Shown: positions 2,978-38,188 of the stretch, piece after piece
How the letters are laid out: every line of letters starts with the position of its first letter
How positions within the stretch are numbered: the first letter of the stretch is position 1
IMG/VR virus record: IMGVR_UViG_2690316062_000001
Coordinates: 1 to 41,023 of that record
Strand: one strand, 5' to 3'
Origin: a virus
Taxonomy: Duplodnaviria; Heunggongvirae; Uroviricota; Caudoviricetes
Length of the DNA stretch: 41,023 nucleotides
Notes under the pieces: model-generated
The model's input: the letters and a program-made list of their open reading frames with translations, nothing else
The model's database searches: none
What the model was told of the DNA's origin: nothing
Made by a program: the position numbers and the translations under genes

Positions 2978-4056
2978 CAGAACGGGTCCTCCTGTACTCT
3001 GGCTTTTTTCTTTTTCCGCGCGCCGGGGGCTTCGGGTTCAGGCAGATAAGCATCAGGTGGGCCGACACGGATTTCCGTCAGGGTGCCGTTCTGGTCCTGA
3101 GTAAACGTGACTTCCGAGACAAGCAGTTCGGTATTGTCGAAACCACAGACCGGATCGAAGACAATCACCCGCTGGTTGGGCTGCCACAGCGTACCGTTAC
3201 CCTGTCGCCAGCCCTGCACCACATAGGTGGTTTCATCCGTCCGCGCCGCCCGTTGCCGGGCTTCAAAGTCAGCACGCGCGATACAGCCTGCCCCCGTGGC
3301 CTGCCCTGTCTGCCTGATATACATCGGACGGTAACGGGCAATAAATGCGTCCTCTGTGCGGGCCCGCAGCGCGGTGGTGGTGGTCTCACCGAAATCATCG
3401 TCGTTTCCGGCACGCTGCCCCGCCACCTGGTAAACAGAAAATCGCTCCCGGATACTCTTCTCCGTATCGCAGGAAAGGATGTTTTCCCCGAGTACCAGCG
3501 CAGTATGTGCCCGCGTTGAGCCAATACCGCCAATCACCAGCCTGCCGTGCGGGTCGTCGTAAGCCAGTGCCTGCTGCTGACCGAGTATTTTGTTGATTAC
3601 CTCAATCACCGTTTCACCGTGATCAGGCTGAACATCAGGAATAACACCCGACGGCGCACCGCTGTTCACCACCTCAATACCGAAAGGCGCAGCAAGCGCC
3701 TGCGCAATCTGCACCAGCGAGCGTCCGTTAAACTGTGTCGGTTCGGCTGCACAGTCAATCAGGTCTGCCGTCAGACTACGTCCGGCAATACCGGTGCTGA
3801 CCGAACGGGCATCGTAACGAACGGGCGTCGCCTCCACCCAGCCGGTGATCACCAGCTCATCACCAATCAGCACTTCCACTTTTGAACCATTTTTAATGCG
3901 CGGCTGAAGCGTGGTGATACCCTCATCTCCCGGCCACTGGCGGGTGATCTCCACACTGAAATCCCGCGCCAGCCGTTCAATACCGGCACCGATGCGCACC
4001 GATGTCCAGCCATTCCACTCCCGGCCATTTACCCGTAGCGTGACATTGTCGTTCAT
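2977..4056 (-). CDS. Baseplate hub / tail protein (Mu gpP-like, late control D family)
   Basis: 359-aa ORF after the DNA circulation gene; 4-nt overlap with it. Confidence 0.6.
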   Translation of the reverse strand: MNDNVTLRVNGREWNGWTSVRIGAGIERLARDFSVEITRQWPGDEGITTLQPRIKNGSKVEVLIGDELVITGWVEATPVRYDARSVSTGIAGRSLTADLIDCAAEPTQFNGRSLVQIAQALAAPFGIEVVNSGAPSGVIPDVQPDHGETVIEVINKILGQQQALAYDDPHGRLVIGGIGSTRAHTALVLGENILSCDTEKSIRERFSVYQVAGQRAGNDDDFGETTTTALRARTEDAFIARYRPMYIRQTGQATGAGCIARADFEARQRAARTDETTYVVQGWRQGNGTLWQPNQRVIVFDPVCGFDNTELLVSEVTFTQDQNGTLTEIRVGPPDAYLPEPEAPGARKKKKARVQEDPF

Positions 4057-5387
4057 TGCACTGGCACCTTCAGAGGGATCACCGGCACAAAGCCGGGATG
4101 CGTAATGGCATTACGCCGGATAATGTCCGCGTCACGCGCCGCGTTATCAAACCAGGTCGCCGCCAGCACCAGCGCGGGTAAAACCTCATCCGGTGTGCGC
4201 TGAATGATCCGTGCAGACTGTTCAAGGCGCGTGTTGATATCCGCATTCAGATCTGCTTTCACCCGGCGCAGCGCCAGAAACAGCGCATCACTGGTTGTAC
4301 GGGACAACTCCTTATCAATTGCCGTATTCAGTGTGTCGCGAATGTCAGTCAGTTCTTCCCACGTCGGCAGATCAACCGTGTTTTTCACCGCCGGTGCATT
4401 GTTCAGTGCCGGATGCGTGACGGAAGGCCAGCCGGTGCTCTGCGCAGCTGTTGTTGCCTGCCCCACTGCGGCATTCTGCATCACCGCGGAAGTTGTTGGC
4501 GCAGGCAATCGGGTGACGGCATACGCCGCTTCGCTGATTGCGGTCGTACGAAGGGTGCTGGCAACCACGTTACGCTGCTGCGTCGCCGTGGCGGTGGTTT
4601 TACTGTCCGTTTTCCAGACGCCGCGCGGTTGCAGATCGCTGCCGAGGCTGACACCGGAAAGCGTTTTGATCATGGTGACCAGGTCGCTGGCGTTACCATA
4701 AAGGCGTTTCCCGGTACGCCACATTTTCTGCACCTGCTCAACGAAATTTTTGCCTGACGATGGCGGCGGCAGAAGTACCGAGATATCCCCCTGCAACAGC
4801 CTGGCGGCATCCGATACGGCAGAATCCACCACTTTCATCGCATCAGAAACATACCCCAGCATTATGCTGGCATTACCGATAACGTCGTTCTGCACGAAAT
4901 CCGCCACACCATCGATACTGAAACCGCTGAAGCTGTCACTGATGCAGTCATCCAGTGCAGAACAGGATGACATCAGCGTCTGCGCCGTCGCCGCACCTGA
5001 TGTGGGGTAAGAGAGTTCTCCTGCTTCGACAAACTTCAGGTCAAAGCGGACAATACGCCCTTCACTTTTCGATGTGCTGACCCGAACTTCCCCGTCAACA
5101 CAGACTTTCAGCTCACCATATGTCGGGTGGACAAGCGTGCCGGGACCGGGTTTATTCAGCGCTTCAATCAGGCGATCGCGCTGGTCAAAGCAGTCATCTC
5201 CCACCACATAAGCTGTGATGGACGGGCGGAAAGTGACTTTTCCCAGATCTTCGGTATAGGGCTTGTCGCGGTTCGGGTATTCATGTGTTTCCACACGGCG
5301 ACCGGTTCCCGCACTTTCTTCTTCAACCTTAAACGGCACACCTCGAAATGACGCATCCTGAAGCCTGTCTTTCCACGTCATATACAC
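4053..5387 (-). CDS. DNA circulation protein (Mu gpN-like)
   Basis: 444-aa ORF; N-terminus MYMTWKDRLQDASFRGVPFKV...THEYPNRDKPYTEDLG...PGPGTLVHPTYGEL matches the recalled Mu N signature. Confidence 0.7.
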   Translation of the reverse strand: MYMTWKDRLQDASFRGVPFKVEEESAGTGRRVETHEYPNRDKPYTEDLGKVTFRPSITAYVVGDDCFDQRDRLIEALNKPGPGTLVHPTYGELKVCVDGEVRVSTSKSEGRIVRFDLKFVEAGELSYPTSGAATAQTLMSSCSALDDCISDSFSGFSIDGVADFVQNDVIGNASIMLGYVSDAMKVVDSAVSDAARLLQGDISVLLPPPSSGKNFVEQVQKMWRTGKRLYGNASDLVTMIKTLSGVSLGSDLQPRGVWKTDSKTTATATQQRNVVASTLRTTAISEAAYAVTRLPAPTTSAVMQNAAVGQATTAAQSTGWPSVTHPALNNAPAVKNTVDLPTWEELTDIRDTLNTAIDKELSRTTSDALFLALRRVKADLNADINTRLEQSARIIQRTPDEVLPALVLAATWFDNAARDADIIRRNAITHPGFVPVIPLKVPVQ

Positions 5388-34223: not shown

Positions 34224-34502
34224 ATGTTCAGAATCATTTTTCCTAACACCTGGTACGTCGACCACCACGGCACTCCCTGCAAAATCCTGCGTTCTACCCA
34301 CAACAAAGTTCACTACATCCGAAAAGGCAGAACATGTATCGCCAGCATGTTCCGCTTTAATCATGACTTTGAACCTGTGAATAAAGCTGATGCAGATCGG
34401 ATAGCAGAAGAGATCGAAACGGCAGAACACATTAAGAAGTTACGTGACATGCGTTCAAAAAGCAGAGGTAACCATGGAATCATACAGCCTCACACTCGAT
34501 GA
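34224..34502 (+). CDS. Hypothetical protein
   Basis: 92-aa ORF upstream of xis; basic. Confidence 0.35.
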   Translation: MFRIIFPNTWYVDHHGTPCKILRSTHNKVHYIRKGRTCIASMFRFNHDFEPVNKADADRIAEEIETAEHIKKLRDMRSKSRGNHGIIQPHTR

Positions 34503-34824
34503 GGCCTGTCAGTTTCTTAAGATATCCAGACCAACCGCCACCAACTGGATACGAACAGGCCGCCTACAGGCAACACGCAAAGACCCCACTAAACTAAAAT
34601 CTCCTTACCTCACAACACGACAAGCCTGCATTGCGGCGCTTCAGTCTCCGCTGCATACTGTCCAGGTGAGCGCGGGTGATGGCATAACAGAGGAAAGAAA
34701 ATGTCACTCTTCCGCAGAGGTGAAATATGGTACGCCAGTTTCACATTGCCGAACGGTAAAAGATTTAAACAGTCTCTTGGAACAAAGGACAAAAGGCAGG
34801 CGACAGAGCTCCATGACAAGCTAA
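34474..34824 (+). CDS. xis: Excisionase (P22 Xis-like)
   Basis: 116-aa product from [32 protein letters not shown] (HTH); overlaps the int start by about 120 nt. Confidence 0.65.
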
Positions 34825-35864
34825 AGGCTGAAGCATGGCGGGTCAGCAAACTTGGTGAAATACCTGATATGACGTTCGAGGAGGCGTGTATCAGGTGGCT
34901 CGAAGAGAAAGCACATAAAAAATCACTGGACGATGACAAAAGCCGGATCGGATTCTGGCTTCAACATTTCGCAGGAATGCAACTAAGAGACATTACTGAA
35001 TCAAAAATTTATTCAGCAATGCAGAAAATGACGAACCGGCGTCATGAGGAAAACTGGAAACTCAGGGCAGAAGCATGCAGAAAAAAAGGGAAACCAGTTC
35101 CAGAATACACGCCAAAACCAGCGTCCGTTGCAACGAAGGCTACGCATCTTTCATTTATAAAGGCCCTGCTAAGAGCCGCAGAGCGTGAATGGAAAATGCT
35201 GGATAAGGCACCAATTATTAAAGTGCCTCAACCAAAGAATAAACGGATCCGCTGGCTGGAGCCCCATGAAGCACAAAGGCTGATTGATGAATGTCCGGAG
35301 CCATTAAAGTCTGTTGTTGAATTTGCACTGGCAACAGGCTTAAGACGCTCGAACATCATCAACCTTGAATGGCAACAAATAGATATGCAGCGCCGGGTGG
35401 CATGGATAAACCCGGAAGAGAGTAAATCAAACCGCGCAATTGGCGTTGCGCTGAATGATACTGCATGTCGCGTATTGAAAAAACAAATCGGGAATCATCA
35501 CCGTTGGGTATTTGTGTACAAGGAAAGCTGTACCAAACCAGACGGAACGAAAGCGCCAACAGTAAGGAAGATGCGGTATGACGCAAACACAGCCTGGAAA
35601 GCAGCGCTGAGACGGGCTGGTATTGATGATTTCAGATTTCACGACTTGAGACACACCTGGGCAAGTTGGCTGGTTCAAGCCGGAGTCCCGTTGTCAGTGT
35701 TACAGGAAATGGGAGGCTGGGAGTCTATCGAAATGGTTCGTCGATATGCTCACCTTGCACCTAATCACCTTACCGAACACGCACGGCAAATAGACTCGAT
35801 CCTGAACCCATCGGTCCCAAATTCGTCCCAGTCAAAAAATAAGGAAGGTACTAATGATGTGTAA
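34701..35864 (+). CDS. int: Tyrosine integrase (P22/DLP12 Int-like)
   Basis: 387-aa [45 protein letters not shown]...; catalytic-domain motifs ...[10 protein letters not shown]...RYAHL; stop 16 bp from the att core. Confidence 0.9.
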
Positions 35865-35880
35865 CTTATTGATTTAAATG

Positions 35881-35928
35881 GTGCCGATAATAGGAGTCGA
35901 ACCTACGACCTTCGCATTACGAATGCGA
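35881..35928 (-). other. att core: 48-bp copy of the 3' end of tRNA-Thr(CGU) (thrW-type), not a complete tRNA
   Basis: Reverse complement GCATTCGTAATGCGAAGGTCGTAGGTTCGACTCCTATTATCGGCACC corresponds to anticodon loop (CGT), T-arm and acceptor 3' strand of tRNA-Thr; flanking sequence on the 5' side does not continue the tRNA. Confidence 0.7.
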
Positions 35929-36012
35929 AGTTTTTATATTTTAACTGCTTGAACAACCATCAGAAATCACAAATTTATCATTTTAAATCATAATATTAAA
36001 ACAAAAAACCTG

Positions 36013-36038
36013 TTGATGTAAATTGATGAGTGTTGATG
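36013..36038. repeat. Three TTGATG repeats phased at 10 bp upstream of second integrase
   Basis: TTGATG at 36013, 36023, 36033; similar GTTGAT / ATCAAC copies at 37416-37447 after the gene. Confidence 0.4.
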
Positions 36039-36110
36039 TTTATCCTTTCAATTTACTTACACCAGCCGTTACATTACTGTAAACCGTAATCCCCAACAGG
36101 AACCCTAAAA

Positions 36111-37430
36111 ATGGCGCTTTCAAGACAAAAACTAACCTTCGAACGAATTCGAAGATTTACTTTACCTGAAGGGAAAAACCAAGTTTTCCTTTGGGATACG
36201 GACGTAACAAGCTTGGCATGTCGAGCAACTCGTGGAGCAAAAGCCTTTGTATTCCAAAGCCTGTATGCGGGAAAAACCCTTCGCATGACCATTGGCAACA
36301 TTAACGATTGGAGGATTGATGATGCGAGGGCCGAAGCCAGGCGACTGCAAACATTAATCGATACTGGGATAGATCCGCGTATAGCTAAGGCGGAAAAAAT
36401 TGCTGAAGCGGAATCACAGCAGGCTGAATCTCGTAAAACGAAGGCAACCTTTTCAAGCGCTTGGGAAGATTATCTTGATGAATTGAGAACCGGAATCAGC
36501 GCAAAAACTAAACGCCCCTACTCTGCACGCTACATTGCCGATCACGTTAACTTGTCCAGTCGTGGAGGCGAAAGTAAAAAAAGAGGCCGGGGCCCAACCT
36601 CACCTGGGCCACTGGCTAGCCTGCTCGACCGACCATTATCAGAACTAACACCAGAGAACATTGCCGAATGGCTAAGTACAGAGAGACAAAATCGGCCTAC
36701 CGTCACTGCTCATGCCTACCGTCTGTTGCGTGCATTCATCAAATGGGCTAATTACCAGAAAAAATATCAGGGAATAATCCATGGCGATCTTGCACAAGAT
36801 CATAACGTGAGAAAAATGGTTCCAATATCAGCGAGCAAAGCGGGAGATTGCTTACAAAAAGAACAGCTCAAAAGCTGGTTCAGTGCCGTGCGTAGCCTCA
36901 ATAATCCCATTGCATCAGCCTATCTCCAAGTGCTTTTGCTCACCGGTGCACGGCGTGAAGAAATTTCCTCACTTCGCTGGTCTGACATAGATTTCAAATG
37001 GTCAAGCATGCGAATTAAAGACAAGATCGAAGGCGAGCGAATTATCCCCCTCACTCCCTATGTTTCTGACTTGTTACGCTCACTGATGGAGATCCCCAAT
37101 CGTGGTACAAACGAGGAGAATTGGGTTTTCAGAAGTAACAGCAAAAGTGGCAAAATTATTGAACCGCGTTCAGCACATAATAGAGCATTAACTCGCGCGG
37201 AGTTACCACATATCAGCTTGCACGGATTGCGCCGTAGTTTTGGGACCCTCGCTGAATGGGTCGAAGTACCAACAGGTATTGTTGCGCAGATTATGGGCCA
37301 TAAGCCTAGCGCTCTTGCTGAAAAGCACTATCGCCGCCGTCCATTAGATTTGCTAAGAAAATGGCATGAAAAAGTTGAATTATGGATCTTAGAAGAAGCA
37401 AAAATAAAAAACAACGTTGATAAGCGTTGA
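36111..37430 (+). CDS. Tyrosine integrase of second element (P4-type)
   Basis: 439-aa ORF; C-terminal LHGLRRSFGTLAEW...IMGHKPSALAEKHYRRR catalytic motifs (R, HxxR, Y). Confidence 0.85.
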   Translation: MALSRQKLTFERIRRFTLPEGKNQVFLWDTDVTSLACRATRGAKAFVFQSLYAGKTLRMTIGNINDWRIDDARAEARRLQTLIDTGIDPRIAKAEKIAEAESQQAESRKTKATFSSAWEDYLDELRTGISAKTKRPYSARYIADHVNLSSRGGESKKRGRGPTSPGPLASLLDRPLSELTPENIAEWLSTERQNRPTVTAHAYRLLRAFIKWANYQKKYQGIIHGDLAQDHNVRKMVPISASKAGDCLQKEQLKSWFSAVRSLNNPIASAYLQVLLLTGARREEISSLRWSDIDFKWSSMRIKDKIEGERIIPLTPYVSDLLRSLMEIPNRGTNEENWVFRSNSKSGKIIEPRSAHNRALTRAELPHISLHGLRRSFGTLAEWVEVPTGIVAQIMGHKPSALAEKHYRRRPLDLLRKWHEKVELWILEEAKIKNNVDKR

Positions 37431-37966
37431 TTTTATCAAATATCAACAACTTACATAAAATCACATGTGTTGACAGAAATTTTTTTTCAGTTATCTTTTA
37501 TTACTGCTAACTACATTCACTCACTAAGCAGGAGATTAACTACAGTGACTAACCCAATAACTGTATCAAGAGAAGACCGAAGTGCGGAAATCAGAGCGAG
37601 ATGGGGTTTACATCCGACTAAAAACAAAAGTTCTAATTTTTGGGAAACAACAATTCAGCGTTTTAATAATAGTAGTACTGACCGAATACTACCTCTTTGG
37701 CACCGTGTTTCAAAACTTTTAGTTGCTATTAGGAATGTAGTCAATACTATAACATGCCCTTTTCCACCAAAGGGGAATACTTCCCGCTCACGCCGAAGTT
37801 CAACAACGTCATCAAAAAACTCATCATCATCTTCATCGGATGGTAGTAGTAGCGACCCCGATCCCGATAGAGACCCCATATTCACCCCTTTTCATTTCAT
37901 TCTTTCATCTCTGTTAAAAACAATGATCGTCTTATTTGCCCACATATCAAATGTTGGGGTGATGAA

Positions 37967-38188
37967 ATGAGCGATATCAAACATCAAAAACCCTCTCAGT
38001 CACAACTAATTTCTACCCGCGAGTTAGCTAATATTATTGGCTATGAAGTACAAACTATTCGAGCTTGGCTTTGCAAAGACAAACTGCCTAATGGTTTACC
38101 GCGACCGAAGAAAATTAAAAACCGACATTATTGGTCACGTAAAGACATTGATAGATACCTATTAACCTTCTCAGTATATAGTAACTAA
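37967..38188 (+). CDS. AlpA/excisionase-like HTH DNA-binding protein
   Basis: 73-aa ORF LISTRELANIIGYEVQTIRAWL...; followed by perfect hairpin CCGGCTATTC-taaa-GAATAGCCGG at 38201-38224. Confidence 0.5.
   Translation: MSDIKHQKPSQSQLISTRELANIIGYEVQTIRAWLCKDKLPNGLPRPKKIKNRHYWSRKDIDRYLLTFSVYSN

Follow-up and report, generated by a model that had tools for sequence, protein, structure and literature searches.

The DNA analysed here, called the window, is a stretch of 41,023 nucleotides assigned to a virus of the class Caudoviricetes (IMG/VR record IMGVR_UViG_2690316062_000001, positions 1 to 41,023), in which the hexamer TTGATG occurs three times, in phase, upstream of the second of two integrase genes, int2. 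In the attachment (att) site of a CP4-6/IntF-type island inserted at the tRNA gene thrW, the triple occupies the integrase-proximal arm, between a displaced 3' fragment of thrW and int2. By analogy with characterised recombination modules, and with somewhat better than even confidence, we read it as a binding array for the recombination directionality factor (RDF) of the island, a small protein of the HTH_17 family.

TTGATG starts at positions 36013, 36023, and 36033, in exact 10-bp steps, as the original prediction, made from the sequence without database searches, had claimed. It is the sole hexamer occurring three times at a fixed period of 9 to 12 bp in the window, and a hexamer triple arose by chance in 0.25% of 400 first-order Markov simulations of the window at period 10 and in 1.5% at periods 9 to 12. 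Judging from the related sequences, the conserved unit is rTTGAy (r, purine; y, pyrimidine) and not TTGATG, because the final G is not kept in relatives. RDFs bind cooperatively, head to tail, to direct repeats spaced by one helical turn (PMC7498355), and the window has three direct rTTGAy sites at 10-bp spacing. Their location is also that of an RDF array in an att arm, with the core on one side, where the thrW fragment ends 84 bp from the 5' end of the array, and a pair of TTACA units on the other, 24 bp from the start of the last hexamer; the identity of this pair as arm-type integrase (Int) sites is itself proposed by analogy with P4.

The motif and its phasing, put forward as features to look for in related islands, are kept there. 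An Int protein search of genome contigs gave four loci, and further relatives were added individually. The alignment comprises 11 integrase-proximal arms from eight genera with 72 to 100% identical Int proteins (four from E. coli and one each from Citrobacter, Kluyvera, Scandinavium, Pectobacterium, Serratia, Yersinia ruckeri, and Aeromonas). When the arms are anchored on the downstream block, the rTTGAy hexamers stand at -44, -34, and -24 from the TTACA pair. The 10-bp register is retained in 10 of the 11, the exception being Serratia with its shifted middle site; a fourth rTTGAy stands at -14 in Aeromonas. The 4-nt spacers between the hexamers drift freely, and the middle hexamer is the most degenerate (ATTGAT, ATTAAC, ATTGAC). 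Across seven divergent arms, the hexamers (18 columns, 12 of them invariant) have a majority fraction of 0.92, against 0.66 for the spacers and 0.58 to 0.62 for the flanks, and only one of 89 alternative triple-hexamer windows is as conserved as the hexamers. At the level of sequence, this is the footprint expected of repeated protein contacts on one face of the helix.

Thirteen bases past the third hexamer begins the block AATTTACTTACACCAGCCGTTACATTA, which is invariant in nine loci and, with a conservation of 0.95, the most conserved part of the region. The window contains one copy, and the 49.9 kb of strain AW1.7 that include the complete island contain exactly two, one per island end. By analogy, its CTTACAC/GTTACAT pair is likely to represent the arm-type sites of Int and is a better candidate for this role than the TTGATG triple; we favour it because the annotated arm repeats of P4 and the layout upstream of CP4-57 intA match. 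The counterpart of the inverted arm repeat that P4 carries at the start of int is TGTAAA, a partial inverted copy located after the pair and ahead of the int start codon. In K-12 and ET881 it reads TGTAAG at the same place, in strain 1070/13, Citrobacter, Kluyvera, and Scandinavium ATGTAAC 5 bp further downstream, and in Y. ruckeri TGTAAG 7 bp further downstream; the alignment has no inverted TTACA copy before the int start in Pectobacterium, Serratia, and Aeromonas. The pair probably also overlaps the int promoter. An OmpR-like reading of TTTAC...GTTACA was dropped, the half-site spacing being 12 and 16 bp and not 10.

The module recurs at the opposite end of complete islands. The thrW-proximal end of CP4-6 in K-12 carries ATTGATcttcGTTGATagaATTTACTTACACCAGCTGTTACATTA, 53 bp from the 3' end of the tRNA, and the corresponding arm of AW1.7, which carries the int2 of the window, is identical to it. 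In the diverged island of ECC-1470, GTTGACtgttATTGATaaaa is followed by CTTACAC-N5-CTTACAT and an inverted TGTAAG. The three thrW-proximal arms all have two rTTGAy hexamers at -24 and -14 next to a TTACA pair, in the same 10-bp register as on the integrase side. By sequence, the modules flank the core on opposite sides and are directly oriented, which is what the P and P' arms of an attP site should show. CP4-6 excises in K-12 in 1 to 27 of 100,000 cells (Wang et al., PMC3105296), and the module is therefore active there.

The candidate RDF is a protein of 73 amino acids encoded downstream of int2. It matches the Pfam family HTH_17 with 28.0 bits, just above the cutoff of 27, and PHROG 66, described as "excisionase and transcriptional regulator", with an E value of 3.5e-6, and it is 63% identical to YkgV of K-12. 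Its AlphaFold2 model, built on a shallow alignment (three matches in the homologue search) and with a predicted local distance difference test score of 74.5, has the order beta-alpha-alpha-wing-beta-alpha, which is that of the MerR/Xis-type winged helices. The weak matches in the Foldseek fold search are all MerR-type winged helices, including RdfS, P2 Cox, Pukovnik Xis, and BldC. The profile searches gave HTH_17 and MerR_1 but no match to Phage_AlpA, the AlpA family proper, at an E value of 0.01 or below, and the protein has no significant similarity to K-12 AlpA (BLASTP E value, 0.69). The homologue in strain 1070/13 is named "AlpA family transcriptional regulator" in RefSeq.

Four distant loci bear on which protein reads which motif. 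In locus L019 (Int 63% identical), the TTACA pair is kept, the phased sites are GTCGTA, GTCTGT, and GTTGGG, and the HTH_17 protein is 23% identical to that of the window. Locus L020, from Aquitalea (Int 56%), has two copies of ACAAGTACAC with an inverted copy, the sites GTTGA, GTTGAT, and ATTGAC at distances of 11 and 10 bp, and a recognition helix reading FKPQTLRRW. Locus L022 (Int 44%) has two copies of GGGGGACAT, the sites GTTGAT and ATTGAT, and an HTH_17 protein 37% identical to that of L020 (RKPQTLRSW). Locus L021, from Paraburkholderia (Int 54%), has a TTACAT pair with an inverted copy, and neither phased sites nor an HTH_17 homologue were found in it. The two motif classes thus vary independently in distant relatives. 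The pattern is suggestive of an rTTGAy array that follows the small HTH_17 protein and a TTACA pair that does not, as far as four distant loci can indicate. A comparison of the N-terminal domain of Int with the pair motif was set aside since it does not discriminate: the domain is 46% identical in L021, which has TTACA, 48% identical in L020, which has ACAAGTACAC, and 42% identical in L022. In metagenome contigs, the pattern GTTGAT-N4-RTTGAY-N4-GTTGAT was found in at least 120 stretches; among the matches listed, one lies near an Int/HTH_17 pair and is identical to the window, and the remainder are unrelated repeats that are uninformative on co-variation. The L022 integrase (3001-4866, 621 amino acids) contains the catalytic-domain segment twice in tandem (...ILQREQLA.WF..VRQ..NP.ISAYLQCLLLTGAR...), and its arm pair GGGGGACAT is close to the GGGGGCAT of P4.

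The original prediction had left the choice between the Int arm domain and an AlpA-type regulator, either of them bound to one face of the DNA. A phased protein-binding array is upheld by the conserved hexamers and phasing and by the module on the other arm. Between the two binders, the comparisons favour a small protein of the AlpA/Vis type. It is unlikely, in our estimate, that the rTTGAy hexamers are instead the arm-type sites of the Arm-DNA-bind_3 domain of the IntF-type integrase, with TTACA serving some other role, such as that of a promoter or of a site for another factor. The integrase does have an arm-binding domain, and the presence on two arms that arm-type sites show is found for rTTGAy in K-12 CP4-6, AW1.7, and ECC-1470. 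Adjacent arm-type sites, such as P'1 to P'3 of lambda, can also sit about one helical turn apart. However, the P4-type layout is seen in TTACA and not in the rTTGAy hexamers, which are spaced by 10 bp and lack an inverted counterpart near the start of int, and a single arm domain would be unlikely to recognise two motifs that are unrelated. Moreover, GTTGAy occurs in L020 and L022 despite their other pair motifs and Int N-terminal identities of 48% and 42%, albeit in a small sample, whereas L019 and L021 keep the TTACA pair without GTTGAT.

Quite unlikely, too, is another binder, be it integration host factor (IHF) or Fis, the YagN-like protein encoded next to int2, or a replication initiator (the DUF3987 or YagK/YfjJ protein) with the repeats as iterons. 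TTGAT and the ATCAA core of the IHF consensus are complementary, an inverted copy downstream of int2 matches that consensus perfectly, the replication repeats (crr) of P4 adjoin attP, and the yagN-like gene always stands between the int and HTH_17 genes. Yet no upstream hexamer is within one mismatch of the full IHF consensus, and the IHF footprint is incompatible with sites 10 bp apart. The array is independent of DUF3987, occurring with it in L015 to L018 and without it in the window and K-12, while L019 has DUF3987 and no array, and the YagN-like proteins have no detectable DNA-binding domain.

The position of the third hexamer bears on the start of int2. PGAP, the genome annotation pipeline, labels int2 a pseudogene with an "internal stop", its gene model starting at 36036 with the ATG within the third TTGATG, and K-12 IntF is annotated from the equivalent ATG as a protein of 466 amino acids. 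In the window, the extension from 36036 to 36110 contains a TAA codon at 36087-36089, the ATG at 36111 follows a Shine-Dalgarno-like GGA motif, and a start there agrees with the Arm-DNA-bind_3 match, so int2 is probably intact at 439 amino acids; the K-12 IntF annotation is probably about 25 codons too long. Read from the equivalent start, the K-12 protein is about 89% identical to the int2 product. It is highly improbable that the repeats are functionless, as chance, as coding sequence of a longer integrase, or downstream as the by-product of a terminator, since, against these annotated starts and a terminator-like hairpin overlapping the downstream repeats, the third hexamer alone overlaps the ATG and the first two are non-coding in any model, the extension frame is interrupted by a stop in the window and the arm-domain match fits 36111, conservation across the eight genera has a period of 10 bp and not 3 bp, and the 5' arm of the hairpin is absent in Pectobacterium, Yersinia, and Aeromonas, where the direct repeats stay.

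Several points weigh against the HTH_17 protein as the reader of the array. No second arm was found in ECONIH4, the closest two-integrase relative, in which the TTACA block occurs once in 49 kb, so the array in the island of the window may be a relic. The classical RDF sites of lambda, L5, and 186 lie on one arm, whereas the motif described here is on both. The Foldseek matches of the 73-residue protein are non-significant, the best E value being 0.27, and its recognition helix reads YEVQTIRAW, as opposed to xK(P/S/A)QT(I/L)RxW in most GTTGAT-bearing relatives. The assignment itself draws on analogy and a handful of distant relatives.

If the HTH_17 protein is the RDF, its monomers would occupy the three sites head to tail along a single face of the helix, in the manner of lambda Xis, 186 Apl, and KplE1 TorI. 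Starting from the thrW core, the integrase arm would be ordered as two weak IHF-like sites, three RDF sites, the Int pair with its inverted copy, and int. The bound array would bend the arm and abut or contact Int at the adjacent pair, and by helping or hindering the loading of Int, it could set the direction of recombination. The array may also modulate the int promoter; since this promoter must lie in the same 100 bp, the array would tune int expression. The repeats, their rarity, conservation, and register, and their occurrence on two arms are observed; which proteins bind, how the arm bends, and how excision and transcription respond, including the regulatory sign, we infer. A more elaborate model, which we regard as possible but tentative, is a two-armed intasome in which the HTH_17 protein forms short filaments on attL and attR, at -44/-34/-24 on one arm and -24/-14 on the other, each held to a strict 10-bp register relative to an Int pair, and controls its own operon with the aid of IHF from a third array that lies partly in the last codons of int. 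If true, this would be a two-armed RDF design coupled to autoregulation, which is undescribed for lambda, P2/186, P4, and KplE1.

This third array lies at the 3' end of int2, where GTTGAT and ATCAAC copies had been reported after the gene, as inverted copies overlapping a TTGACA hexamer at 37470. Copies are present at 37416, 37426, and 37442, along with a weaker ATCAA at 37435. The cluster is not wholly downstream of the gene, as the stop codon of int (37428-37430) lies inside the second GTTGAT. The mirror image of the triple holds in part: two copies are direct and overlap the end of int, and the conserved inverted one is the perfect IHF consensus. The claimed overlap with TTGACA was incorrect, the cluster stopping 23 bp upstream of the hexamer, and GTTGAC at 37469-37474 is itself an rTTGAy-type variant.

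The two GTTGAT repeats encode the last four codons of Int and the stop (V-D-K-R-stop; V-D-x-R generally). The pair is kept in nearly all of the ten relatives with an intact int, three of which have one-base variants (ATTGAT in 1070/13, GTTGAG in Citrobacter, GTTGAC in Pectobacterium); the first copy in the ET881 pseudogene is GTAGAT. The V-D-x-R terminus of Int is likewise kept in most relatives, probably owing to the DNA sites rather than to the protein. ATCAA-N4-TTA is retained in eight of the ten relatives. The last four bases of TATCAACAACTTA (37450-37453) open a CTTACAT unit (37450-37456), and the TATCAACAACTTA region may also be an Int site, its TTA starting that unit. Sixteen bases past TATCAACAACTTA lies a promoter-like sequence that, matching at 10 of 12 positions, scores highest in the region; TTGAC or TTGAT is positionally conserved there in relatives. 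The hairpin over the downstream pair (CAACGTT-GATA-AGCGTTG; z = -2.2) had raised a terminator origin of these repeats, which was rejected on the distribution of its 5' arm given above. RDFs often have a further set of sites at a promoter, and the promoter array of 186 confers a dual role (PMC7498355). By analogy with Apl, Cox, and Vis, the GTTGAT copies and the IHF consensus would act as an operator and an IHF site through which the HTH_17 protein regulates its own operon at this promoter.

Features of the attachment arm, int2, and the following operon in the window
Feature	Position	Strand	Details
thrW fragment	35879-35927	-	Displaced 3' part (49 nt) of tRNA-Thr(CGU) thrW; core-containing repeat of the att site
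Two IHF-like sites	35965-35998	+	AATCACAAATTTA (35965-35977) and AATCATAATATTA (35986-35998); consensus scan
Phased rTTGAy array	36012-36037	+	GTTGAT (36012-36017), ATTGAT (36022-36027), GTTGAT (36032-36037)
TTACA block	36050-36076	+	AATTTACTTACACCAGCCGTTACATTA; CTTACAC (36056-36062) and GTTACAT (36068-36074), 12 bp apart
TGTAAA	36078-36083	+	Inverted partial TTACA copy between pair and int start; weak in the window
int2	36111-37430	+	IntF-family tyrosine integrase, 439 amino acids; Arm-DNA-bind_3 and Phage_integrase (Pfam)
Two direct GTTGAT	37416-37431	+	10 bp apart (37416, 37426)
Putative IHF site	37441-37453	+	TATCAACAACTTA; perfect match (0 mismatches) to the IHF consensus WATCARNNNNTTR; includes ATCAAC (37442-37447)
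Promoter-like sequence	37469-37497	+	TTGACA-16-TATCTT, for the yagN-like/HTH_17 operon; GTTGAC (37469-37474) overlaps the -35 element
yagN-like open reading frame	37545-37970	+	141 amino acids from a GTG start; first gene of the operon
HTH_17 protein	37967-38188	+	73 amino acids; AlpA/Vis/YkgV-like winged helix; candidate RDF and regulator

BLAST places the island at the paoD/yagP-thrW locus of E. coli. The thrW fragment is identical to the 3' part of the full thrW annotated in K-12, ECONIH4, and AW1.7. Across the window, ARAGORN calls no complete tRNA; at 35882-35954 on the minus strand, the Rfam tRNA model aligns over its full length with 36.3 bits (gathering score, 29), and this match appears to be a pseudo-tRNA made of the 3' 49 nt of thrW and island DNA. 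The two IHF-like sites between the fragment and the array are each one mismatch from WATCARNNNNTTR, and the CA-N5-TTA columns of the second are partly conserved in the alignments. They are low-confidence candidates for sites at which the DNA is bent between core and arm sites.

The genes after int2 are the yagN-like open reading frame, the HTH_17 gene, a yagM-like open reading frame, and the gene for a YagK/YfjJ protein, and the homologous order in K-12 is intF-yagN-ykgV-yagM at one end of the cryptic prophage CP4-6. The yagN-like product has no family match in profile searches, and its gene is found at the equivalent position in K-12 (yagN) and in L015 to L019.

To the left of the triple, a 387-residue integrase (34701-35864) closes a P22/lambda-type prophage, to which an HTH_17 Xis-like open reading frame at 34444-34824 also belongs; the junction with this P22-like prophage lies just left of the thrW fragment. 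AW1.7 has the same island, 99.8% identical over int, without the left prophage and with 44.5 kb to an intact thrW, and because its island lacks this prophage, we read the window as the integrase end of a thrW island joined by a second element at the displaced tRNA fragment. The stop codon of the left integrase (35862-35864) falls within GTAACTTATTGATTTAAAT. A similar sequence, TTGATTTTA, stands beside the tRNA 3' end at both island junctions in several genera; the att identity segment therefore reaches about 20 bp past the tRNA.

The island is highly mosaic in ECONIH4 (L010) and AW1.7 (L144), with sucrose phosphotransferase system and hydrolase genes, many insertion sequences, and a group II intron. 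In addition to a K-12-like yafW/ykfI toxin-antitoxin end, AW1.7 has a defence-like cluster (DUF262, DUF1156, a helicase, and a retron-type HNH endonuclease). An S8 peptidase/AAA ATPase module takes the place of the thrW-proximal end in ECONIH4; in ET881, this module makes up a tandem element of its own.

CP4-6 is one of the nine cryptic prophages of K-12 and still excises, and islands of its family occupy thrW in many Enterobacteriaceae, with sucrose utilisation, defence, and toxin-antitoxin genes as cargo. The literature searched contained no published map of the CP4-6/IntF att arms. The map of rTTGAy hexamers, a two-arm TTACA pair, and IHF-like sites offers a mutable basis for testing the control of excision and integrase expression, and it comes with an int gene that PGAP labels a pseudogene in this island type and that is probably intact.

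Among known systems, KplE1 of E. coli K-12 (CPS-53; IntS, TorI) is similar in having int beside a tRNA-derived att site, with attL overlapping PintS. It carries three RDF sites at a spacing of about 10 bp immediately before the int promoter, Int arm sites come next, and its RDF is a small winged-helix protein. Its three TorI sites lie 2 nt apart beside the -35 element of PintS, which the Int arm sites overlap (Panis et al., PMC2951348). The KplE1 sites, however, read GTTCG, GATCG, and GTCCG as opposed to rTTGAy, the proteins are others, and the tRNA gene is argW instead of thrW. Unlike in KplE1, the phased motif of the island studied here occurs on the second arm as well and ahead of the operon of the candidate RDF.

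The X1-X1.5-X2 sites of lambda Xis and the sites of 186 Apl are at least three direct repeats at helical-turn spacing, bound head to tail beside an arm-type Int site. The middle site X1.5 of lambda is the weaker one (PMC7498355), and the middle hexamer of the present array is the most degenerate. Their proteins are unrelated in sequence to those of the island, whose downstream cluster consists of two direct repeats and an IHF consensus.

The satellite phage P4 (NC_001609) shares an Arm-DNA-bind_3 integrase and, in relatives, a related backbone order of int, a small HTH gene, and a P4 alpha-like DUF3987 gene. Its RDF, the small HTH protein Vis, has a role at att and also regulates transcription. 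Its annotated "attP arm sequence repeat" resembles the TTACA layout: 12-bp tandem pairs of GGGGGCAT flank the core on either side, and one inverted copy lies at the ATG of int. On the other hand, its Int is about 20% identical, its arm motif is GGGGGCAT and not TTACA, and its tRNA core points towards int, whereas that of the island points away from it. P4 has no rTTGAy array, and no phased motif was seen on its non-int arm.

CP4-57 of E. coli K-12 has the same type of backbone, with the small HTH protein AlpA encoded downstream of int, and intA is preceded by a 12-bp tandem pair (TAGGCCCA) and an inverted copy. Its Int is about 26% identical, in the catalytic domain only, AlpA is dissimilar, and the motifs are others. 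CP4-57 was rejected as a close comparator, the proteins being too distant for site comparison, and serves as an architectural analogy only. Just upstream of the arm pairs, (G/A)TCCG(G/A) repeats occur in both P4 (L013, 3966-4010 and 9050-9085; also near the vis start) and CP4-57 (L014, 170-215). They resemble the TorI cores GTTCG, GATCG, and GTCCG, suggesting a Vis/AlpA/TorI type of site distinct from the rTTGAy of the IntF family.

The design thus follows the rules of KplE1, P4, lambda, and 186 and is an ordinary architecture, a worked example and not a new principle. What sets it apart is that the phased motif occurs in one register on both arms and that a third array lies partly inside the end of int.

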